Shown piece by piece: positions 4,153 through 29,541 of a stretch of 32,000 nucleotides of DNA. Below the pieces are notes generated by a model. It did not search any database, was not told the origin of the DNA, and saw only the letters and a list, made by a program, of their open reading frames with translations. The stretch comes from Telmatocola sphagniphila. Its GTDB lineage: Bacteria > Planctomycetota > Planctomycetia > Gemmatales > Gemmataceae. The position numbers and the translations under genes were made by a program. The DNA lies in the NCBI RefSeq assembly GCF_018398935.1, contig NZ_CP074694.1:4890001-4922000 (forward strand), in the 5' to 3' direction. Position 1 is the stretch's first letter. The number at the start of each line of letters is the position of its first letter.

Positions 4153-4599
4153 TTAACTGACCCAAGTCCCGTCCACGATATTCCAATTCAGCAGTTCTTC
4201 AGGTTTAAACCAAAGAGAAATCTCCAGAGAGGCATTCTCGGCACTGTCGCTCCCGTGAATCAGATTGTTTTGCACGCTCAGGGCGAAATCCCCTCGAATC
4301 GTACCGGGGGGAGCTTTGGCCCCATCGGTCAGTCCCATCAGATTTCTGCAAACCTGCACGGCTTCACGTCCCTGCCAGACCATGGCCACTGTCGGGCCGG
4401 AGGTCAAAAATTCGAGCAGCGATTCATAGAACGGCTTACCCTTGTGCACGGCATAGTGCTTCTCGGCCAGAGCTCGATCCGCTTTGACAAACTTCAGGCC
4501 GATCAGTTGCAGGCCCTTCTGTTCAAAGCGAGCGGTGATCGAACCAATCAAACGGCGTTGAATGGCATCCGGCTTCAGTAGAATCAGCGTTTGCTGCAT
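4153..4599 (-). CDS. ndk: Nucleoside diphosphate kinase
   Basis: 148 aa with LILLKPDAIQRRLIGSITARFEQKGLQLIGLKF...GPTVAMVWQGREAV...GTIRGDFA...NLIHGSDS, the full-length NDK pattern including the active-site His context (NxxHGSD). Confidence 0.95.
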   Translation of the reverse strand: MQQTLILLKPDAIQRRLIGSITARFEQKGLQLIGLKFVKADRALAEKHYAVHKGKPFYESLLEFLTSGPTVAMVWQGREAVQVCRNLMGLTDGAKAPPGTIRGDFALSVQNNLIHGSDSAENASLEISLWFKPEELLNWNIVDGTWVS

Positions 4600-4841
4600 G
4601 GAGTGCTGCCCGTATCTTCGAGTTCAATAACAATTTAGGTTTAGTCAGTCTGTGGCGCCCCAAAGCGGACGTCCAGATGAGTTTTCCCATTTTTCACGGC
4701 TTCGCAAAAATATCGGATCGACTAGCGGGATTTCACCCGGTTTGATCCGAAATTCTCGAAACCTTCACATGACATATGAATTATGATTCATAATTTAAAA
4801 GTAAATGTTTTCCTAATTTACTTTTTATCGGAGCCAATCTC

Positions 4842-5879
4842 GTGCCTAAAACACGTAGAGGGTTTACCCTGATCGAACTTCTGGTGGTGATCGCGATCAT
4901 TGCCATTCTCATCGGCCTTCTTTTGCCTGCAGTTCAGAAGGTCCGCGAAGCCGCCTCACGCATCAAATGCGCCAACAATTTGAAGCAGCTGGGCCTCGCG
5001 GTGATGAATTATGAAAGTGCCTTCAGTTATCTTCCTCCCTCCAGTATCAACAGCCCGGGCATTCCCGCGCCTTCTCAGATGTCGCAATTTCTGAAGGTCG
5101 GCACGACGGGCACTTCCTCGGCGAACTATGCCCAGACATCGTTTCTGACGATCATCCTCCCGTTCATCGAGCAGGGCAACATCCTGCAGCAGAACGGCAT
5201 CAGCTACGATTTCCGTCAGGATTGGTATTCGGTCAACAATCAGGCGGCGGCCACCCACCGCATCCCGACCTTCGAATGCCCTTCGACTCCCACCACGCAC
5301 CTGATTGACCCCGCTCTGCAGGCATCCACATACGGCAACTTGGTTTACGCCACTTCCGACTACATGGCCGTCAACCGCAGCAACAATCGCCCCGCCATTT
5401 GGCAGGCGATGGGTTTGAACTATCCCGGCAGCGTGCCTGTGGTATCCAGCGATAAAGGCATCAAGGGGGTGATGATCACCAACGATTTCAGCACCATCAT
5501 GCAGATTACGGATGGCTTGAGCAACATGATCATGATTGGCGAAGCTGCTGGCCGTCCCGCTCAATACCTCAAGGGCAATAAGCTCGCGGTCACCCAGCCC
5601 ACCTACATGAACGGGCCTTGGGCTTATTCGGGCAATGACATTGCAGTCGACGGATCCACCGGCGGGCCGAACTATACGACCCTGACAAACGCGGCCGACG
5701 TCCCCTCTTCCTGCCAGATCAACTGCAACAATCAGGGGGAGCTTTATGCCTTCCACACGGGTGGCTGCAACGTGGTCATGGGAGATGCTTCCGTCCGCTT
5801 CCTGCGGGATTCGATTTCGCTGGCCAATTTGCTGAAAATGTGCGCTCGCGGAGACGGCTATCCTGTCGAAATTGATTAA
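4842..5879 (+). CDS. DUF1559 / H-X9-DG family protein with prepilin-type N-terminal cleavage/methylation motif
   Basis: GTG start preceded by GGAG. The N-terminus [55 protein letters not shown] is the classic type IV pilin-like leader plus DUF1559 head. The C-terminal motif [17 protein letters not shown] has DA here instead of DG. Confidence 0.9.
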
Positions 5880-9979: not shown

Positions 9980-11023
9980 ATGAGTCGAACCTTTTTCGCT
10001 ATCACCGATATGTCGCACGAACCAGCGACCGCTGAGGAGGCGATCGCTCCGATCGAGCCTATCAAGCTGCCCTTGCCCGCGAAAAGGGTTCCTCCGAAGG
10101 CGGTGGTGACTCCCGCTCCCAAGCCGATGCCTAAACCGAAACCGGAAGTCGTACCTCCAGTCGATCCCGATGATATGATCATCGACGATGGTTCGGTGCC
10201 GTTCATCGAAGTGGGCGGTCCACGCCCGGCTAGCTCGATACCGATCGTTCGCAAAATCGTCGCGCCCCAACCCCAACCTTCCCCCAGCGTGGTTGCGGAA
10301 CCGGCGGCCAAAACCTACGAATACTCCCATAAACCGGTCAAATTGCTGAATGTTTCGTTCCAGCCGATGCCCGATCCAAAACTCTACAGCCCGGGCGGCA
10401 CTCCGATCGCTTCCGATCTGGTCACTTTCCATCAGCCCGCTCACCCCGTGAGCATGCAGTATCGCCAACTGCAGAATCAAATCGCTTCGCAGCTTCCCAA
10501 AGTGGATCGCGCGATGATTCTGCTGACATCCGTGCGCGGCGGTTCCGGGGCTTCGACGGCGGCTTTGAACATCGCCATCAGTCGAACGTACGAACATAAA
10601 GGTCGCGTACTGCTACTCGATGCTAATCCCGGTCAGCCGACGTTGGCGAGCCGGATCGGCTGCGCCGACCAGCCAGGCCTGAGCGAGATTCTGATTTCGG
10701 AAACGCCGTTGGGGTTATCGATTCAGCCGACGGAGATGCCGAATTTGCATCTGCTGGCCTGGGGCCGGTCCGAAAAGCATCTCACCGATGCGCACTGGGC
10801 GAAACTTCCCACGATTGTCAGTCGCTTGATGCAGCGATTCGAATGGATCATTGTGGATGGGCCACATCGGCTGGAAAGCCTGAAGCGCTGGATTGCCTTA
10901 AGCGACGGGATCTACATGGTGGTCCGCCAAGACGAATGGGATAGCCCCCATGTAGACCAGGCCCACGATGCGATTCGCAACAGCGGCGGCAAGCTCCGCG
11001 GTTGCCTGATGACGGCTGCTTAA
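9980..11023 (+). CDS. BY-kinase / MinD-ParA-like P-loop domain protein with a degenerate Walker A (predicted pseudo-ATPase) and a Pro-rich N-terminal region
   Basis: The C-terminal ~200 aa align by eye to the CpsD/Wzc catalytic domain (HQPAHPVSMQYRQLQNQI..., ILLTSVRGGSGASTAALNIAIS, GRVLLLDANPGQP, WIIVDGP, DGIYMVVRQ). The P-loop reads RGGSGAST instead of KGGxGK[ST]/PGEGKST. The gene starts 23 nt after the ExeA-like gene. Confidence 0.65.
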   Translation: MSRTFFAITDMSHEPATAEEAIAPIEPIKLPLPAKRVPPKAVVTPAPKPMPKPKPEVVPPVDPDDMIIDDGSVPFIEVGGPRPASSIPIVRKIVAPQPQPSPSVVAEPAAKTYEYSHKPVKLLNVSFQPMPDPKLYSPGGTPIASDLVTFHQPAHPVSMQYRQLQNQIASQLPKVDRAMILLTSVRGGSGASTAALNIAISRTYEHKGRVLLLDANPGQPTLASRIGCADQPGLSEILISETPLGLSIQPTEMPNLHLLAWGRSEKHLTDAHWAKLPTIVSRLMQRFEWIIVDGPHRLESLKRWIALSDGIYMVVRQDEWDSPHVDQAHDAIRNSGGKLRGCLMTAA

Positions 11024-11163
11024 ATTTTAGTTGATAAATACTACAGAAATTTATTTTCGAACGTTGGAGCCGCCTCCTCTGACGAGTTTCAGGGCATTTT
11101 CCTTGGTTTTTCAGACAATACCAATAAATTCTATTTTAAATTTTGCGCGAAGTTAATATAAAA

Positions 11164-11194
11164 AATCCTTAAGCATTTCTGCTCCTTGAGGATT
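11164..11194 (+). promoter_or_regulatory. 5' leader hairpin that includes the Shine-Dalgarno of the third DUF1559 gene
   Basis: aatccttaag (11164-11173) pairs with cttgaggatt (11185-11194): 10 bp with one G-U and an 11-nt loop. The GAGGA at 11188-11192 is inside the 3' arm, and the ATG is at 11199. Confidence 0.4.
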
Positions 11195-11198
11195 ATTT

Positions 11199-12131
11199 AT
11201 GCGCTCTCCCCGCTCTCCGAAGGCATTTACGTTAATTGAGTTACTGGTGGTCATCGCGATAATCGCGATTCTCATTGGCTTGTTGCTCCCCGCCGTCCAA
11301 AAAGTACGGGAGGCAGCCGCCCGTATGAAATGCTCGAACAATCTGAAACAATACGGATTGGCGATGCATAATTTTCACGATGCTCAGGGCTCCCTGCCTC
11401 CGGCCTCGTTCACCACTCCGGTCCGGACGAGCTGGCTTCCCTACATTTGGCCGTATCTGGAAATGGGAAATGTGGCGGCCAAGTACGATTTCACGCAACC
11501 GTTTTACGCGTCGCCAAATACGATCGTCAGCACACTGAATGGACCGTATGCCGCCACCTCGCCGGTTTATTATTGCCCGAGCGATCGTGGGTCGGCCTGT
11601 TATGCCCAGGGGGATATCTATTGGCGGGCGCGAGGCAACTACGTGGTCAACTGGGGACCGATCCGCCAGCCGAGTCCTACCCCGGTGCCCTCTTTCAGCG
11701 CTCCGTTCGGCTACACCGATCACGTTAGCCGATCCCAGCCGCTGAAGACGAAATTCACCAGCATTACCGATGGACTATCCAACACGCTACTGATGTCCGA
11801 ACAGATCATTCATACCGTGGATAACCAAGCCGATTGGCGGGGGGACTTCCTGAATGATGATGAACAGACCGGTAAATTCATGACGATCAACTTGCCGAAT
11901 GGCGGGATCGATGAGGTGAAATCCTCGGCCTATTGCTTCAATCAGCCGGCACAGGGTCTGCCCTGTACCTCGTCCGCCAATGGTCAGGTGGCGGCTCGAA
12001 GTCGTCACACGGGTGGGGTGAATGTCGTGCTGTGCGATGGTTCTGTGCAGTTCATCCGGAATTCCATCGATCTGCAGGTATGGCAGGGCATGAGTACCAT
12101 GAACGGTGGCGAAATCGTATCTCCCAATTGA
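11199..12131 (+). CDS. DUF1559 / H-X9-DG family protein with prepilin-type N-terminal motif
   Basis: N-terminus [55 protein letters not shown]-terminal [17 protein letters not shown]. Confidence 0.9.
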
Positions 12132-13686: not shown

Positions 13687-14664
13687 CTACTCGCTCGGGT
13701 AGAGCGGTGTCGACAGATATCTTTCACCGAGGTCAGGCAGTACAACCACGATCATCTTGCCGGCATTCTCCGGCCGCTTCGCCACTTGCACCGCGGCGTG
13801 AGCCGCCGCCCCGCAACTGATGCCGCAGAGCATGCCTTCTTCTTTGGCCAGTCGCCGGGCCATCTCGAAAGATTCATCATCGGTCACCTGGAAGACTTCA
13901 TCCAGAATGCTGATGTTGAGGTTGCCGGGAATGAAACCGGCCCCGATCCCCTGAATCCGGTGGGGAGCCGGTTTCAATTCCTGACCGGCCATTTTCTGGG
14001 TGATGACCGGGCTGCTGACCGGTTCGACGGCGATGGCCTTGACGGAGGGCTTGCGAGCCTTCAGCACTTCCGCGCACCCGGTAATGGTGCCCCCGGTGCC
14101 GACGCCGCAGACCAGAATGTCGACCTTGCCGCCGGAGTCTTTCCAAATCTCTTCCGCAGTCGTTTTGCGGTGAATTTCCGGGTTGGCGGGATTCTTAAAC
14201 TGTTGGGGGATGAAGGCTTTCGGCTCGCCGCCCATTTCGTTGAAAAGTCGTTCGGCCTCGGCCACCGCACCGCTCATCCCTCGTTCGCGGGGCGTCAGTA
14301 CCAGTTCGGCTCCGAAGGCCTTCAGGAGCCGACGGCGTTCGAGCGACATGCTTTCGGGCATCGTTACCATTAATTTGTAGCCGCGAGCGGCACAGGTAAA
14401 GGCGAGACCGATCCCGGTGTTGCCCGAGGTCGGTTCGATAATGACCGTGCCCGGCTGGATCTTGCCGCGCTTCTCGGCATCGTCGATCATGGCTACACCG
14501 ATGCGGTCTTTGACGGACCATAGGGGATTGAAGTTTTCGAGCTTGGCGACCACCGTCGCCTTGGCATCCCCGACTACCCGCCGCAGCTTGATCAGCGGCG
14601 TATTTCCTACACATTGGGTAATATCATCGTAAATTCGCCCGCGGGAGAAGGTGGCATCAGCCAT
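13687..14664 (-). CDS. cysK: Cysteine synthase A (O-acetylserine sulfhydrylase)
   Basis: [20 protein letters not shown] (PLP lysine context), [29 protein letters not shown]: the complete CysK/CysM fold-type II PLP pattern. AAGGA lies upstream of the ATG. Confidence 0.93.
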
Positions 14665-14769
14665 GGAAAATCCTTTATGACTAGTCGAGCCTGCATATTT
14701 TCTAGTGGCTAAAGATTATCAAAAAAGTGATAAAAAGTGAACAGCAAATCAAATTCTGATTCTTGAATG

Positions 14770-15111
14770 TCAAGTCGGGGGCAATTCTTGGGGAGTTAGT
14801 GGTTGAGACGAATCGGTGATGTAGCGATCGTAGTTCTCGGTCGGTTCGACCGTCGGATCGTAATCGTGGAGGGTGTAACCCTGATCGAAGACTTGTTGTA
14901 GAGTACCGTTGTTCCAGAAGCTGGAATAGAGGTAAGCATCATCCGGGCGTGTTGAATTGGAAGAGAAGTCCCCGTCCGCGTATAGCCAATAGACACAGAT
15001 GGCGAAAAGCAATCCGCCGATCAGCCAGGCCCAGAAGGTGGTTTCGTCGACCATGATCCAAGCATGGCACAGGATGGGAAGGGAGGCAAGAAGGCCGTCA
15101 AGAACTAGCAT
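14770..15111 (-). CDS. Hypothetical small membrane protein (1-2 TM helices plus an acidic/aromatic tail), possible third gene of the ATPase-TOPRIM islet
   Basis: Hydrophobic segments MLVLDGLLASLPILCHAWI and TFWAWLIGGLLFAICVYWLY are followed by a polar tail. The start is ambiguous (TTG 15186, ATG 15111, ATG 15054). With 15111 it overlaps the upstream gene's stop by 14 nt. I see no recognisable family and no clear RBS. Confidence 0.35.
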   Translation of the reverse strand: MLVLDGLLASLPILCHAWIMVDETTFWAWLIGGLLFAICVYWLYADGDFSSNSTRPDDAYLYSSFWNNGTLQQVFDQGYTLHDYDPTVEPTENYDRYITDSSQPLTPQELPPT

Positions 15112-15769
15112 TAACGGGTAGAATAGGACTGACGATATGATAATTTCCCGCAACCGCCCTCGAAAGTTCGAGTAAAGCGTTCTCAAAGCGTTGGAAAGAC
15201 CGCATTCTTTGAGCAGCGCTCCAATCGGATATCTGGCGGGTCAATTCCACTTGCTGGCTGGCCTCGGAATAACCGCCATTCAAATTTTCCCGCAGCCACT
15301 TTTTGGCATCTCGTGGCGCATCTTCCGCATTCGGCGGGAGTTCAATACCCAACTTAAGTAGAGAAAATTGTGCGGCGGAGGCGATCAGAAAGGATTCATA
15401 TTCCTGAAGTAAAAATACGACTGCGAACGAAAATTTTTCTCCCGCGGCGGCTTGCTTCGCCCGCTCGGCTAATAAACGGGCTACCGTGACTTGACAGAAA
15501 GGAGCTTTTTCAAACTTTTTGTGATCCCCATCCAGAACGAGCAGTATTGCCCCCAAGTCGGTCTGTTTTGCAGCCGTCTTCAGATAGCGCAAGAATTTTT
15601 CGCCATTATTCGCGGCAAGATTTTCCAGGCCTCCCACTCGAAAAGCATTGCTGTCAACAAATAACGCGTGTCGATACTCTTCGGGCAAATTCGTTTGCCG
15701 ATTCCCAACAAGAGCGGGCATGGACGTAGCTTCGCTATATCCCTCGCAAAATATAACCAATCGTTTCAT
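15098..15769 (-). CDS. DUF4276-like protein (predicted TOPRIM-fold nuclease partner of the upstream ATPase)
   Basis: The ATG at 15769 is 4 nt after the ATPase stop at 15774. N-terminus MKRLVIFCEGYSE (conserved Glu), then LLVLDGDH (DxD) and QEYESFL, then a ...KKWL...GYSE...RSFQRFENAL tail. This matches my recollection of DUF4276 and the TOPRIM E...DxD logic. The track ORF start at 15865 would overlap the ATPase gene. Confidence 0.6.
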   Translation of the reverse strand: MKRLVIFCEGYSEATSMPALVGNRQTNLPEEYRHALFVDSNAFRVGGLENLAANNGEKFLRYLKTAAKQTDLGAILLVLDGDHKKFEKAPFCQVTVARLLAERAKQAAAGEKFSFAVVFLLQEYESFLIASAAQFSLLKLGIELPPNAEDAPRDAKKWLRENLNGGYSEASQQVELTRQISDWSAAQRMRSFQRFENALLELSRAVAGNYHIVSPILPVNASS

Positions 15770-15773
15770 GGGC

Positions 15774-16883
15774 TCAGGGGCTGTTTGTAGCCAAATCGGC
15801 AACTCGTGCGGCATCCACCGTAAGCAACTCGCCAGGAATAAGCAATTTTTCTTTAAGAGATTCAAACTGCTCGGGTGCTAGCTTTCCAATCCGGGTTTCC
15901 TGATTCACGATCTCGACAACTCGAATCTGTTCAGGCTCGAAATAATCCAAAAGTTGCGGACTATGAGTCGTTATGATGATTTGTCCTCGACCACGACCCA
16001 CATGGTTTTGGAATTCGTTGGCTAGCCCCTGCAGAGCGCTTGGATGAATCCCCATTTCGGGATGCTCGAAAATCAAAACATCTTTGGAGGGATTCTGATA
16101 GACCGCTAGCAAATGGGCTAAATAGCGGCGATATCCTTCGGATTCTTGAGCAACATCCTGGAAAATTTCATTTTCGTGATCACGGTAACCCACCACTAGT
16201 AGTGATCTTTTTTCACTTTGATCAATTTTCAAAGAAGTCGAATTGGGATTAATCAGCCGCATGGTGCCCTTTATTGAATCCCAAGCATATGGCTCGCTGG
16301 AATTTTCATAAATGGTACGAGCTGTATCCTGATAATTTACGCCACGATCAACGAATCCAGCCTCCGGAATCTGTCGCGAAGGCACATTCGTCTGCTCTAG
16401 GACGTTTCCCGGGAAATCATAACAGCCGATCTGTTGTGTCAGATACTTAAAAGCAAAAGTGCTCGCTCTAAGTTCAGTATGATTTCCAAGTTCTAAGCGA
16501 GGTTTGTTACTATTTTCAAAAATGAAATCGCCATTTTGTTGGAGTGCTTCGCTCAATATTGAAATCCCGCTTCCTTCAGATTTCAAAACCAAATAGTAGT
16601 TCTGTTCTCCTTTCAGTCGGGGGATAGTGTAACTTACGTCGATTGACTGCTCGAGAGGCTGAGTGCCGTTTTGCTTATTCTGAAAATTCCTACCCGGTCG
16701 ATTGGCCACATCCGAAATAAAAGAAAGGTTTCGCGACTGGAGAGTCTGTCGCAGCGCCCGAATCGCCTTCACGAAGTTGCTCTTCCCCGTGCCACTTCGG
16801 CCGATCAGGACCGTCAGCGGCTCGAGTTCCACAGTTACATCGTGCAGACTGCGAAAATTCTGAATCCGAATCTTGCGAATCAT
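15774..16883 (-). CDS. ABC/SMC-like ATPase of the AAA_21/AAA_15 (OLD / AriA / PtuA-like) type
   Basis: N-terminus MIRKIRIQNFRSLHDVTVELEPLTVLIGRSGTGKSNFVKAI (RecF/OLD-type head with Walker A). Signature-like ESEGYRRYLAHL. Walker B region DVLIFEHPEMGIHP. H-loop IIITTHSPQLL. The gene is visibly AT-rich relative to its neighbours. Confidence 0.8.
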   Translation of the reverse strand: MIRKIRIQNFRSLHDVTVELEPLTVLIGRSGTGKSNFVKAIRALRQTLQSRNLSFISDVANRPGRNFQNKQNGTQPLEQSIDVSYTIPRLKGEQNYYLVLKSEGSGISILSEALQQNGDFIFENSNKPRLELGNHTELRASTFAFKYLTQQIGCYDFPGNVLEQTNVPSRQIPEAGFVDRGVNYQDTARTIYENSSEPYAWDSIKGTMRLINPNSTSLKIDQSEKRSLLVVGYRDHENEIFQDVAQESEGYRRYLAHLLAVYQNPSKDVLIFEHPEMGIHPSALQGLANEFQNHVGRGRGQIIITTHSPQLLDYFEPEQIRVVEIVNQETRIGKLAPEQFESLKEKLLIPGELLTVDAARVADLATNSP

Positions 16884-17013
16884 GTAGCAAATCCCCTATT
16901 CCCTTATTTTGCCGTACTTTAAGCCCTCTGTCACTACCATTTCCCAACGGGACTAACTAAAGTCCTGCCTTTCACCATCGCCCTGCACCCGCCTGGGTCT
17001 TAAACTGACGGAT

Positions 17014-19125
17014 ATGGCCAAAGGAAATATCGTGATCGATCTGACTAAACTCCGAAACATCGGCATTATCGCGCACATCGATGCCGGTAAGACCACCACC
17101 TCGGAGCACCTGCTCTACTACGCCGGCGTAAAGCACAAGCTCGGCGCCGTCGATTCCGGCAATACGGAAACCGATTACGACCCCGAAGAGCAGGAACGGG
17201 GCATCACCATCTACAGCGCCTGCATTCCCTTCACCTGGAAAGGGTACACGATCAACTTGATCGATACCCCTGGCCACGTCGATTTCACGGCCGAGGTCGA
17301 GCGCAGCCTGCGCGTGCTGGACGGGGCCATCTGCGTGTTCGATGCCCAAAAAGGGGTAGAAGCGCAGTCGGAAACCGTCTGGCGGCAGGCCAACAAATAC
17401 GGCGTTCCCCGGCTGGTTTTCATCAACAAAATGGACGTGGTAGGGGCCAACTTCGAAAAAGCCGTCGGCGAAGTGCGCGAACGACTCGAAGGGAATCCCG
17501 TTCCCATTTCGATTCCCATGGGTGCGGGCAGCAGCAAGGATAGTCACGATCCATTCAAAGGGATCATCGATCTGCTGCAAATGAAAGCGCTCTATTTCGA
17601 AGCAGCGGAACTCGGTAAATCGATGCGCGAGGCGGAAATCCCCGCCGAGTATCTGGAAGACGCGAAGAAATACCGCGAACAGATGTTCGATGCCCTGACG
17701 GCCCACGACGAAAAAGACCTGATCACCTCCGCCGTGCTCGAAAGTCACGACGCCGATCTGAACAAAATCCGCGAGCTGATTAGGGAACTGACGATCAAAG
17801 GAACCATCCACCCTGTGATGTGCGGCTCGGGTCGCGAGCATATTGGCATTCAACCGCTTTTGGATGGTATCTGCTTCTATCTTCCCAGTCCGCTGGATCG
17901 GCCGCCGGTCGCCGGCACCAATCCCAAAAAGGATGGGAAAGAGGAAAAGCGGAAACCCGATCCCAAGGAACCTTTCGCGGGTCTGGTCTTCAAATTCATC
18001 GGCTCCGATCATGGCGGGTTATTCTTCATCCGCATCTATTCCGGAACGCTCAAACCCAATAGCCGGGTGCTCAATCCGGGTCGCGATTCCAAGGAAGTCA
18101 TCGGCAAAATCTTCCATGTGCACGCCGACCCGAAAGCGGAACGGGAAGATCTGCCCGAGGCCTACGCCGGGGATATTGTCGCCACCATTGGCCTGAAAGA
18201 AGCCGTCACTGGCGATACCCTCTGCGAAACGCAGCACCCGATTCTTCTGGAAAAAATCGTTTTTGCCGAGGCCGTGGTCAGCCAGTCGATCGAACCCGAC
18301 TCGAACGCCGATAAAGACAAGATGATCGAATGTCTGAAGATGCTGGAGCGTGAAGACCCAACTTTCATCTGTCAGCTGAACAAAGAGACCGGGCAGCTGA
18401 CCATGAGCGGCATGGGCACCCTGCACCTGGAAGTGAAGCGGCATCGCCTGGAACGGGATTTCCGTTTGAAAGTGCGCGTGCGGCCGCCGCGCGTCAGCTA
18501 TCGGGAGACAATTCGCAACAACAAGACGGTCACCGGGGAATGCGTGCGCCAGGCAGGCGCCTCGCAGCTGTTCGCTAAACTGACCGTCAGCTTCGAATCC
18601 CGAGTTGGAAAAGAACCGACCGGGATTACCAACAAACTCAAGCCGAACGATCTGCCCGCTCCATTGATGGCGGCCGCAGAACGGGGTTTGAAGAGTGCGC
18701 TCCAGTCGGGGGAACTCGGGTTTCCATTGCTGAACGTGCATGGCACGATCATCAGTGCTCAAATGGATCAGGAAACTTCCAATGAAGTCGCTTTCGAAGC
18801 AGCGGCGGCCGATGCCGTGGCCCGGGCTCTGAAGGATAACATCATCCTGATGGAGCCGATCATGAAGCTGAACGTAACGGTACCCGATGAGTTCATGGGC
18901 AACGTCATCGGCGACCTGATGAGCCGGCGCGCGGAAATCGATCGGCAGGATTCGAACGGGCGAATTTCCATTATCGATGCCCGGGTACCCCTGGCGAAGA
19001 TGTTCGACTATGCGGACAAGGTTCGCAGCCTGACGCAAGGCCGGGCGGGCAGCACCATGGAGCCGTTCAGCTATGCGGCCGCTCCAGACGAAGTGCTGCG
19101 CTCCTTCATCGATCCGGAATATTAG
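17014..19125 (+). CDS. fusA: Elongation factor G family GTPase (stand-alone, probably an EF-G paralog)
   Basis: G1 [9 protein letters not shown], G2 region EQERGITI, G3 DTPGHVDF, G4 NKMD. Full five-domain length (703 aa). It is not next to rpsL/rpsG/tuf, and the effector region is divergent ([29 protein letters not shown]). Confidence 0.9.
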   Translation: [703 protein letters not shown]

Positions 19126-20708: not shown

Positions 20709-21815
20709 ATGCGGATTGAAGCAACCGATCGAAGAGCCTTTTCTCGTAAAGATTACATCGCCCTGGTAATCATCTGCCTGGTACTTGCCGGTCTGTTGCT
20801 TCCGAAGCTGCTGAGAATAAAAGATTACTCTGAACGAACTCAATCGAAGAACAATCTGAAATCAATTTTACTGGCGGTATGCAGTTACGAAGCCGCCTAC
20901 AGCAAACTCCCTCCTTTGATGGGGGGCGGTTCCACCAGTAATTCTCCCACTCAAGACTTTCACATTGCGGGCGGTTCGCTTCGAGAATCTAAAATCGTTG
21001 GTCCTCTGCACATTATGATTCTGCCGTACTTGGAAGATAGTCCGCTTTATGCGAGTATGGCTACTCACGACGCGAGCGGTTTGACCATCCCCTCCACCAT
21101 TTTCGATGGGAAGCCGGCCTTTCAATACGTCATTAAATCCTATGTCAACCCGTTGGATCCCAGCCAAAAGCTGGGACTGGATGAAAAAGGGCGTGGGGTC
21201 TGCAGCTATGCCGCCAACGCGCAACTGTTCGCCAGCACGAACAAATCGGGATTAATAACCGAAGAATTAACCGGCAACAGCAATCAGTTTGATCGCGGCT
21301 TAGCTCTCGATAAAATTCCGGATGGTAGTTCGCACACGATTGCCTTTTCGGAAAAATTCGGCAGCTGCGGCAACGGCGGAAGCCTCTGGTCCGCGGGGAT
21401 ATTGGAAAAGGACAAGATCTACAAAGAGGTCCCCGCCAACACCGCGAAAGACTACAGCTCCAAGATCTCTAATGAATCTAAAGACGACAGATACTACTGG
21501 CCCGTCTTTGGTCTAGGCGGAGGTGCCAGTTTACCTCCCGCAGTTTATGGTGCCAACCCGGCCTCCAATCCCGCTAGCCGCGTAATCTTTCAAGTACAGC
21601 CCGATTTTCAAATGCATCAAGGCTTCAATGATCAGATCAACAAGCAGGGATGTGATGCTTTCCGAGCGAATAGTACTGGTTCAAGTCAAATTATTGTCGG
21701 CATGGCGGACGGTTCCGTTCTTTCTCTTCGGATCGATATCGATCCTCAAATCTGGTTCTATGCGATCTATCCCGACGACGGGACGAATTGGCAACCGGAG
21801 AGTCTTGCACCTTGA
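20709..21815 (+). CDS. Degenerate DUF1559-like protein lacking the prepilin cleavage motif and the H of H-X9-DG
   Basis: It keeps the DUF1559 head logic (hydrophobic helix, LLLPKLLRIKDYSERTQSKNNLKSILLAVCSYEAAYSKLPP) and the tail GMADGSVLSL. It has no G-F-T-L-I-E leader and no His 10 residues before the DG. Confidence 0.65.
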   Translation: MRIEATDRRAFSRKDYIALVIICLVLAGLLLPKLLRIKDYSERTQSKNNLKSILLAVCSYEAAYSKLPPLMGGGSTSNSPTQDFHIAGGSLRESKIVGPLHIMILPYLEDSPLYASMATHDASGLTIPSTIFDGKPAFQYVIKSYVNPLDPSQKLGLDEKGRGVCSYAANAQLFASTNKSGLITEELTGNSNQFDRGLALDKIPDGSSHTIAFSEKFGSCGNGGSLWSAGILEKDKIYKEVPANTAKDYSSKISNESKDDRYYWPVFGLGGGASLPPAVYGANPASNPASRVIFQVQPDFQMHQGFNDQINKQGCDAFRANSTGSSQIIVGMADGSVLSLRIDIDPQIWFYAIYPDDGTNWQPESLAP

Positions 21816-27448: not shown

Positions 27449-29038
27449 TTATTTCTTGAGTTCCTGTTCTTTCTTCCGCAGTTGCTGTTCCAGCCGGAAC
27501 ATGTCATCGCGGGAGGTATTCAACTGCTGCAGCAGACCGAAGAGTTCTTTTTCCCGTTCCGCAAGATCGGCCAGGAACTTCTTGGCACTGACTTTATTAT
27601 CTTCCAGGTTCCGTTCCAGATTTTCCCGTTCGCGGGTGCGATCATTCAGGTTCGCTTCCTGATTGTTCTTCTGATTCTGAACGCCGGATAGTTCCAGATT
27701 CAGACCGCTGAGCTGGTCGCCCAGCAAGGTCGCGGAACGACTTTGATCCGCATAGTTGGCTCGGAACACCGATTCTTCTTCGCGGAGGATACCCCGGAGT
27801 CGCTGGGCCATATCGGCCAGAGCGATCGCCTGGGTGTTGGCACTTTCGACATATCGCTTCATGCCGACGATAGCCATGACGCGTTGCTGCCAATCCCAAC
27901 GGGCGCTGAAGTCGGGTTTATCGGCATCGATGAAGATCAGGATGTGAGCAATCTGGGCGGCTTTCTCGGAAGGATCGAAGATCTTTTTGCCGGAGCCTTC
28001 TTTGGTCAGTGTCGCCGGGGCTTCAGCCTCGTCGAAGTAAACTTGCAGGACGGCTTTACCGGCCGCGATGAGGTTCTCCGCGGTCGCCGACTTGTCGGAC
28101 ATCAGAACTTCAGCGAGAGCATTCAGAGCGTTTCGTTCCGATTCAGATCGGGCGGAAGCGACCACGATATCCCGAAGCGACTTACGGGCATTCTCGGCCT
28201 GGGCCGCATCATTGAGAGGAGCGGCCAGAAGTTCGATCACCCGATTCAGAGTCGTCTTGATATCTTCGTTATTGATCAGGTCGTTCAATTTCTTGCGAGC
28301 GTTCTCCAGTCCAGCGCGGTCCACCGTGTCGGTCCCGGCGGCTTTCTCGACATCCAGTACGGCATTGCGGATGCTTCGTTCCGCTTCGGCTCGGGCGTCG
28401 GCGGAGTCGCCCGAGATACCCAGAGGAGCGGTCGATTTCAGAAGATCGAGGATGGCCCGGCGAGCAGTGACGGCTCCCCCTTTATCGCCAATAGCCGCCA
28501 ATGCTTTCAGCGCGTCGACCTGGCTGGGCGTCCGGGCGAGCAGGCCGATTTCAATTCGAGCCCCTTCCACGCGAGCCGGATTGAGGATATCTCGTAACAG
28601 AGCGAAGGCCCCGTCGCGGTGAGCGCCGGTTTGAGCCAGGTTGAGGAGGTATTTTAAAATTAAGTTGAGTTTGGCGGGGTTGCCGTCGGCTCCGTCGATC
28701 TGGCTGAAAATCTTCTGCTGGAGCCGTTTCAATTCCGCCGTCTGGCTGTTGACGGGTTCACCGCCGAATTCGGAACCACCACTGGGTATAGCTTTCTGGA
28801 GGGTCGATTTACGGATGGTATTCAACCGAACCTGATCGTTGACCTGATAGTCAAAAGGAACATCTTCGGAGCCGGTACCACTCTCGCCTTCTAACGGCAG
28901 CCCTTTTAAGGCAATGGTGTGCCGGAATACCGAGTAGGTCCATTCCTGCCGTTTGCCCCAGACACTGCTGGCCAGGTAAATGAAGGCACCGGCCGCCAGG
29001 AGATTCAGAACGAGCAGAATTTTACTTAAAAGTCCCAT
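27449..29038 (-). CDS. Membrane-anchored coiled-coil protein (hypothetical)
   Basis: ATG at 29038 is preceded by GGAGGA. TM anchor ILLVLNLLAAGAFIYLASSVW is similar in layout to the downstream gene's anchor. There is a long helical middle region. The C-terminal ~100 aa are strongly coiled-coil (NLERNLEDNKVSAKKFLADLAEREKELFGLLQQL...LEQQLRKKEQELKK). Confidence 0.6.
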   Translation of the reverse strand: MGLLSKILLVLNLLAAGAFIYLASSVWGKRQEWTYSVFRHTIALKGLPLEGESGTGSEDVPFDYQVNDQVRLNTIRKSTLQKAIPSGGSEFGGEPVNSQTAELKRLQQKIFSQIDGADGNPAKLNLILKYLLNLAQTGAHRDGAFALLRDILNPARVEGARIEIGLLARTPSQVDALKALAAIGDKGGAVTARRAILDLLKSTAPLGISGDSADARAEAERSIRNAVLDVEKAAGTDTVDRAGLENARKKLNDLINNEDIKTTLNRVIELLAAPLNDAAQAENARKSLRDIVVASARSESERNALNALAEVLMSDKSATAENLIAAGKAVLQVYFDEAEAPATLTKEGSGKKIFDPSEKAAQIAHILIFIDADKPDFSARWDWQQRVMAIVGMKRYVESANTQAIALADMAQRLRGILREEESVFRANYADQSRSATLLGDQLSGLNLELSGVQNQKNNQEANLNDRTRERENLERNLEDNKVSAKKFLADLAEREKELFGLLQQLNTSRDDMFRLEQQLRKKEQELKK

Positions 29039-29541
29039 GCTGCGATCCTCCAACGGTCGCTGAGGAGACACGGGGCGGGCACTCGGATGGCAATATCCGT
29101 CCCACCATCAAAATAGGAATAAAACCTACTGATTACGGGACTCATCCCGGAGTCACCGTACAGCGGCCTGCTATTCCTCCCTAGATTTTGTCCCATCTTG
29201 CCTCTTTTGCCAATAAAATCTTCCCAGCAACTCTAATAAGCCGGGGGAAGCGGGTGAACCACACCGGTCGAATTGATTTTTCGGCCCGAAGGTAAAAAGT
29301 GTCGCATATTACCTTAATTCCCCGATGCGATGTTGTCGGGAAAATTAATGGGGAAGTTGAAACGAAAGTTTTCGTTTGTCAAAAAGCGCTGCTAGAATAG
29401 CGCTGCAATAATTACAAAGGAACGGAAAATCCTTTAGAGCGTGATCGCGAAATCTCTCCCGGTATTGCCGATTTCGGCCGTCCTTTACGATTTCGGTTCC
29501 GTGATGTTCCTTACCCCCGCAGCCTCCTAGGAGAGCACGTT

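Follow-up and report, generated by a model that had tools for sequence, protein, structure and literature searches.

HEC-01, a candidate anti-phage system in PADLOC, consists of an ATP-binding cassette (ABC) ATPase and a Toprim protein and is embedded in Hma systems; its B protein, HEC-01B, has the metal site of OLD (Payne et al., bioRxiv 10.1101/2024.01.29.577857). Here, a gene pair of this kind is reported from Telmatocola sphagniphila, a planctomycete of Gemmataceae with a genome of 6.59 Mb. The pair lies in a 32-kb stretch of this genome, called the window hereafter, and all positions are counted from the start of the window. The first gene encodes an ABC ATPase and the second encodes a DUF4276 protein. 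With a probability of roughly 70%, the pair is a horizontally acquired two-gene operon, which constitutes a split immune module similar to OLD and PARIS and belongs to the HEC-01 type of PADLOC. The classification is based on the matches of the two adjacent, same-strand proteins to the PADLOC models HEC-01A (PDLC04178, 1.6e-41) and HEC-01B (PDLC04196, 1.3e-22).

The combination of an ABC ATPase with a Toprim protein has been described in several systems. In the PARIS paper, MADS3-4, annotated with DUF4276, was classed among them. MADS is the methylation-associated defence system of Pseudomonas aeruginosa. The MADS study reported that the deletion of mad3 or mad4 lowers defence and that both are needed for full defence. 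It also reported that mad5 can be deleted only if mad2 or mad3 is deleted as well. The Menshen paper introduced DUF4276 and RloB as new Toprim members. The Toprim arrangement given there, with Glu after the first beta-strand (b1) and DxD after the third (b3), is the one seen in the DUF4276 protein of T. sphagniphila.

Both proteins match the HEC-01 models end to end. Residues 2-358 of the ATPase are aligned with positions 9-379 of the 399-position HEC-01A profile, and residues 1-202 of the DUF4276 protein with positions 1-191 of the 197-position HEC-01B profile. HEC-01A accounts for eight of the nine top-scoring PADLOC models of the ATPase. The locus also shares with HEC-01 the adjacency of the two genes with the ATPase first, the ABC fold with a beta-rich Insert 1, and the Toprim-like partner with a conserved metal site. 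It differs in three respects. The T. sphagniphila copy stands alone among housekeeping genes, not inside an Hma system; it is a planctomycete member that has diverged, sharing ~50% identity with the closest relatives; and its planctomycete clade has E-H in the Walker B motif instead of E-E or D-E. An earlier note, made from the DNA sequence of the window, proposed a split ATPase-nuclease module similar to OLD and PARIS at this locus, and the HEC-01A and HEC-01B matches and the adjacency of the genes support this proposal. The note also considered the DUF4276 variant not to have been validated by experiment and the module to be possibly uncharacterised, which does not hold. The variant is catalogued as HEC-01 in PADLOC and was tested in 2024 (no defence) and in 2026 (protection), and Mad3 and Mad4, an ATPase and a DUF4276 protein, had already been shown to be needed for full MADS defence.

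Weaker PADLOC matches of the ATPase are to the models of AriA, AbiLi, NsnB, Old, GajA and mad3. [quoted passage not shown] The ATPase is 369 aa in length, whereas AriA is 464 aa. AriA is not among the 50 fold matches listed for the ATPase, and its sequence match is just 8e-3. The partner is DUF4276 rather than DUF4435. The membership in PARIS was rejected because the partner shows no AriB or DUF4435 match in PADLOC and Pfam. MADS resembles the pair in combining an AAA_15/21 ATPase, Mad3, with a DUF4276 partner, Mad4. It differs in having eight genes, including the mandatory MAD6-8 (MADS study). The membership in MADS was rejected because none of MAD6-8 is found beside the T. sphagniphila pair and because the ATPase reaches 78 bits with the NCBIfam model MAD3, the cut-off of which is 420. 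In addition, mad4 is absent from the four PADLOC matches of the DUF4276 protein at E <= 1.

The class 1 and class 2 OLD proteins and GajA of Gabija, in which the ABC ATPase and the Toprim domain are fused, have an ATPase of the same family (Thermus OLD, TsOLD, 7.7e-9 by sequence and 9e-14 by fold). The best fold match of the partner in PDB is the Toprim region of Burkholderia OLD (BpOLD), although it is weak (template modelling (TM) score 0.27-0.30). The membership in OLD or Gabija was rejected because the ATPase and the Toprim protein of T. sphagniphila are separate open reading frames (ORFs) with a stop codon between them, and no GajB/UvrD-type helicase gene is adjacent to the pair. AbiL, composed of AbiLi and AbiLii/RloB, is similar in its ATPase (AbiLi against the ATPase, 1.5e-27), and the best viral fold match of the partner is RloB-like; it was rejected because the partner has no RloB or AbiLii sequence match. 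Menshen is similar in NsnB (1.8e-21 against the ATPase) and in that DUF4276 is also an effector domain of NsnC (Menshen paper). It was rejected because neither an NsnA nor an NsnC gene is present at the locus.

The ATPase and the DUF4276 protein

The ATPase matches AAA_21 (2.1e-27) and AAA_15 (4.7e-25) of Pfam and has 841 homologues at E <= 1e-10. Its AlphaFold2 (AF2) model has a pLDDT (predicted local distance difference test) score of 88. The Foldseek matches of this model in PDB are PtuA (1e-14), TsOLD, and the heads of SMC and Rad50. Based on this resemblance, the modelled protein belongs to the OLD/PtuA branch of ABC ATPases; it has a beta-rich insert but lacks a coiled coil. The earlier note described it as an ABC-type ATPase with a RecF/OLD-style head, in agreement with these matches. 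The motifs quoted there, IQNFRSL, GRSGTGKSN (K34), SEGYRR and TTHSP in the ATPase and FCEGYSE and LVLDGD in its partner, were all found. Walker A (GRSGTGKS), the signature-like motif SEGYRR (248-253) and the H-loop TTHSP (H307) are intact, and these motifs, the second as SEGxRR, are conserved across 120 homologues.

The Walker B motif (residues 269-276) is VLIFE-H-PE. E273 is kept, and H274 takes the place of the catalytic Glu, in the column that aligns to IEEPE of Thermus OLD. This E-H is present in 112 of the 115 closest homologues; the other three have E-E. A more divergent subclade, found at one homologous locus (L085), has E-E as well. As judged from the alignment, His at the catalytic position may mean slow or altered ATP turnover. 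The C-terminal tail, encoded at 15774-15836 (residues 350-369), has the sequence PGELLTVDxAR (350-360), which is invariant across 41 homologues. It is poorly ordered in the monomer model, where pLDDT is below 50 from residue 356. Invariant yet poorly ordered in the monomer, the tail may be a docking peptide that serves either the contact with the nuclease partner or oligomerisation.

The DUF4276 protein itself scores below the gathering threshold of Pfam DUF4276 (PF14103; 28.0 bits against 30.2, E 3.2e-6, residues 57-199). Nevertheless, 34 of the 35 aligned family members match DUF4276 (best 2.9e-16), and by this transitive homology of sequences the protein is a DUF4276 member. This agrees with the HEC-01B match and with the family named in the earlier note. 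OLD-like_TOPRIM of Pfam shows faint matches in five of the 35. The AF2 model has a pLDDT of 93 and shows a three-layer fold in the order b1-a1-b2-a2-b3-a3-b4, after which comes a C-terminal part made of helices. The elements are E2-8, H11-25, E36-38, H48-67, E72-79, H93-105 and E113-119.

In the 35-sequence alignment, E9, directly after b1, is Glu in 34 sequences and Asp in one. D80-G81-D82 after b3 is invariant, and so are E123 and E125 in QEYES after b4. The helical C-terminal part carries the invariant PRDAK (152-156; P152, R153, A155 and K156) and R194. Judging from their conservation, E123/E125, PRDAK and R194 are candidate residues for binding a second metal and the substrate. Structural comparison gave weak matches. 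Foldseek against PDB found no match at E <= 1e-3, and the best match in the viral database BFVD is an RloB-like protein (E 2.4e-3, TM score 0.47-0.49). The protein is Toprim-like on the basis of the modelled fold order, the near-invariant Glu, the invariant DxD and the literature, while the fold searches are weak. In this regard, the Toprim likeness claimed in the earlier note stands for the Glu and the DxD, and the fold order agrees with it; the structural matches are weak (BpOLD 3.6e-3, RloB-like 2.4e-3). By analogy, the protein is predicted to be a metal-dependent nuclease effector.

Each of the two proteins is 100% identical to a T. sphagniphila record at NCBI; the name given there is "ATP-binding protein" for the first and "DUF4276 family protein" for the second. 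Both records are shorter than the ORFs. The ATPase record has 352 aa and starts 17 residues later than the 369-aa ORF (region 16833-16883), and the longer ATG start is backed by the homologue alignment. The DUF4276 record has 207 aa and is devoid of the first beta-strand and E9 (region 15722-15769). Homologue alignments favour the longer ATG start of the 223-aa protein. Cloning from the 207-aa public record would give a dead nuclease, as the Toprim Glu is missing.

Base composition and homologous loci

The GC content at third codon positions (GC3) was compared among 29 long ORFs of the window, with the 27 ORFs other than the pair as the reference (0.651 +/- 0.052). The ATPase gene (0.451, z -3.8) and the DUF4276 gene (0.469, z -3.5) show the lowest values among the 29. 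The pair is also the lowest-GC 1786-bp stretch in the window. The GC3 anomaly, together with the drop in identity from 100% to ~50% at the next homologue, indicates that the pair was probably acquired horizontally by T. sphagniphila. The hand counts of GC in the earlier note were exact (35.0% for 16441-16560, 41.7% for 15361-15420 and 52.5% for the start of the EF-G gene). Its claim of foreign composition stands for the ATPase and DUF4276 genes, but not for a third ORF downstream, which it had included in the block. Other dips in GC (0.46-0.48 in 500-bp stretches) are seen at 4501-5000, 11001-11500 and 29001-29500. These dips are short and lie at least in part between genes, in contrast to the dip at the pair, which is 1.8 kb and genic.

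The DUF4276 family is a large one. The DUF4276 profile finds 1806 representatives of 50%-identity clusters at E <= 1e-3. The next-best homologues of both T. sphagniphila proteins are 48-51% identical, and their named sources are planctomycete (Gemmataceae, Zavarzinella and Isosphaera). Seven homologous planctomycete loci were compared (L001-L004, one JGI contig, L085/L086 and L087). In all seven, the genes for the ATPase and the DUF4276 protein lie side by side in one orientation. Of five junctions that were read, four show an ATGA overlap of the stop and start codons, and at the fifth, L085, these codons are 9 nt apart. Such overlapping or near-abutting codons indicate a tightly coupled operon. 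The neighbours of the pair are housekeeping genes, a different set at each locus, which indicates that the cassette moves as a unit.

The synteny around the pair was compared at 80 cysK loci from species-representative genomes, by tblastn with the neighbours in the window. The EF-G gene, the S9 peptidase and the CN hydrolase were found within 10 kb of cysK at none of the Gemmataceae or other planctomycete loci. As cysK and the EF-G gene do not stay together over this distance, the comparison with empty sites is uninformative either way. Three Chloroflexota contigs (L065, L077 and L079) have an EF-G homologue, ~32% identical, 0.4-1.3 kb upstream of cysK; this proximity is taken to be a coincidence. 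Several of the best cysK matches (71-79% identity; L005, L012, L019 and L026) come from contigs of metagenome-assembled genomes labelled Alcaligenaceae or Candidatus Kuenenia. These contigs, especially those labelled Alcaligenaceae, may be mis-binned planctomycete contigs.

Table 1. Features of the T. sphagniphila locus, with positions in the window.
Feature	Position	Strand	Source
HEC-01A-type ABC ATPase, 369 aa	15774-16883	minus	ORF list, Pfam, PADLOC
HEC-01B-type DUF4276/Toprim-like putative nuclease, 223 aa from ATG	15098-15769	minus	PADLOC, Pfam, AF2 model
Spacer GCCC, 4 nt, from ATPase TGA to DUF4276 ATG	15770-15773	minus	
Divergent intergenic region, 130 bp, from the start of the ATPase gene to that of the EF-G-family gene	16884-17013		
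Orphan ORF starting at TTG (138 aa) or at the ATG of 15111 (113 aa)	14770-15186	minus	

The three ORFs of the earlier note, with the 4-nt gap and the overlap of the third with the end of the second gene, were reproduced at its coordinates (Table 1). Its placement of the block between two housekeeping genes was confirmed as well. One of these is of the PALP/cysK type (7e-80), and the other is an EF-G-family gene with five domains. Further neighbours in the window encode DUF1559 (SBP_bac_10) proteins, a CN hydrolase and a peptidase S9. Two DUF1559 proteins, of which one carries an N-terminal methylation motif, are encoded at 11199-12131 and 20709-21815. They represent a typical expanded planctomycete family and are consistent with the source organism.

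No hallmark of a mobile element was found at the borders of the module. There is no tRNA gene in the window, and the border repeats are just 12-22-nt matches at chance level. No terminator-like site was found at the borders, and promoter-like sites are no more numerous than in shuffled sequences. The only sigma-70-like match on the minus strand of the divergent intergenic region is at 16934-16906, a consensus match of a kind no commoner than in shuffles. Between the stop of the orphan ORF and the start of cysK lies a 105-bp AT-rich stretch (14665-14769, 32% GC), presumably the cysK promoter region. The operon of the pair would run into this stretch, in which a terminator-like site was not detected.

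Alternative explanations and predicted function

The earlier note proposed a small membrane protein as a third component, and the locus would then encode an ATPase sensor, a Toprim nuclease and a membrane effector with two transmembrane (TM) helices. Lying on the same strand as the pair, the orphan ORF has 138 open codons. It overlaps with the second gene's end and shows two hydrophobic stretches, at about residues 15-46 and 50-70. Its periodicity is weakly of the coding type (GC3 > GC1 > GC2 in its own frame), and an automatic gene caller picked it in another assembly. That call, 113 aa in length, 100% identical and apparently from the same organism, is its sole match among 5.8 billion proteins, so that the ORF has no homologue but itself. 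The match comes from a Logan assembly only and has no NCBI record, unlike both neighbouring genes. No match to the ORF was found in Pfam, PADLOC or NCBIfam, and tblastn found no counterpart in 84 loci, including four of the homologous loci. As for the co-occurrence with ATPase-DUF4276 pairs that the earlier note suggested checking, none of the seven homologous loci has a third small gene downstream. In several of them the next gene starts 30-200 nt downstream or is on the opposite strand, leaving no room for one. The GC3 of the ORF (0.633, z -0.3) is like that of native genes and unlike the 0.45-0.47 of the pair, indicating that it did not arrive with the cassette. Based on the native composition and the absence everywhere else, the ORF is judged to lie outside the module, being either a lineage-specific orphan without relation to it or no gene, and the three-component system is the least probable of the explanations considered. 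The Rfam scan of 14400-17300 gave a single match, antisense within this ORF (14858-14938, plus strand), to the sucA motif. It is below the threshold (E 0.14, 24.5 bits where the gathering score is 40) and is most likely a chance match.

Two other explanations concern the pair itself. It could be a selfish toxin-antitoxin or addiction cassette, with the nuclease as the toxin restrained by the ATPase, that is kept by post-segregational killing. The Pfam text on AAA_21, which presents it as AbiEii, the putative toxin in a type IV toxin-antitoxin system, points in this direction, as do the lone cassettes scattered among housekeeping genes outside defence islands. The lack of defence by HEC-01 in one study (bioRxiv 10.1101/2024.01.29.577857) and the requirement of mad2 or mad3 deletion for mad5 deletion, which implies toxicity depending on these genes, would also fit. 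However, one HEC-01 representative did protect (PMC12881386), and the closest models, AriA, AbiLi, Old, GajA, PtuA and Mad3, all come from phage-defence systems. Toxin-antitoxin behaviour and abortive-infection defence are, moreover, compatible with each other. An addiction cassette is unlikely, but it is more probable than a housekeeping accessory of DNA repair or replication, in which a RecF/OLD-like ATPase and a Toprim nuclease would be a long-standing planctomycete pair. The latter is consistent with weak N-terminal matches to RecF, RecN, SMC and Rad50, with the wide presence of the pair in Gemmataceae-like genomes, with its composition near that of the flanks in other genomes and with the housekeeping neighbours. 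Against this, the position of the pair differs in each genome, which is unlike core repair genes, and the composition anomaly in T. sphagniphila is strong. The best matches are models of defence systems rather than equivalogs of repair proteins; the RecF score is 26 bits, with the cut-off at 172. A role in repair is accordingly highly improbable.

Several observations weigh against the horizontally acquired immune module of the HEC-01 type. In its first published test (2024, bioRxiv 10.1101/2024.01.29.577857), which used E. coli, HEC-01 did not protect against the phages assayed. For a HEC-01 representative from a cold seep, protection of E. coli B against one or more of T4, T5 and T7 was reported (2026, PMC12881386), but this positive report is sparse in detail. 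None of the eight loci is within a recognisable defence island, and a single-sequence tblastn search with the DUF4276 protein returned nothing from the collections of plasmids and phages. In three homologous loci, the GC content of the pair is at most ~5 points below the flanks, and a long residence in those genomes is possible. As for the Toprim assignment, the best Foldseek match in PDB, 6nk8_A (the C-terminal, Toprim-containing part of BpOLD), is weak, with E 3.6e-3. Generic flavodoxin-like folds score close behind it, and the sequence profile of the DUF4276 family finds no solved Toprim among PDB chains. His274 could, from its position in the alignment, mean an ATPase-dead protein with another role. 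Finally, the function of the T. sphagniphila pair and of the other planctomycete members is predicted only, by analogy.

If the pair is an immune module of the HEC-01 type, its mechanism can be outlined from related systems. The ATPase would dimerise on ATP through the Walker A, signature and H-loop motifs. It would act as a sensor and regulator that keeps the Toprim partner inactive, possibly through the invariant C-terminal tail. A phage cue would alter the state of the ATPase and license the nuclease. The Glu/DxD/Glu metal site would then cut nucleic acid, either DNA as in OLD and Gabija or tRNA as in PARIS AriB. The cleavage would stop the infection, possibly at a cost to the cell. PARIS, in which the ATPase scaffold frees the nuclease on a trigger, appears by analogy to be the most plausible mechanistic template. 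In the planctomycete clade, where His replaces the catalytic Glu of Walker B, ATP may be bound or sensed but not rapidly turned over. A more specific scenario is quite unlikely, slightly more so than the addiction cassette. It makes the planctomycete HEC-01 clade a non-hydrolysing or histidine-catalysed sensor that gates the DUF4276 nuclease, with the lineage-specific two-TM protein as a possible further recruit downstream in Telmatocola. If true, the E-H sensor variant would be nearer to the ATP-level sensing of GajA than to the ATP-driven trigger recognition of AriA.

The kind of module was correctly recognised in the earlier note, but its novelty and its membrane component were not borne out. 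The locus leaves the current picture unchanged, as the HEC-01 models of PADLOC already match both proteins. Its contribution is a planctomycete case of the widespread module made up of an ATPase and a DUF4276 protein. The substitution of His for Glu in Walker B is a natural variant for probing the need for ATP hydrolysis in HEC-01-type systems.

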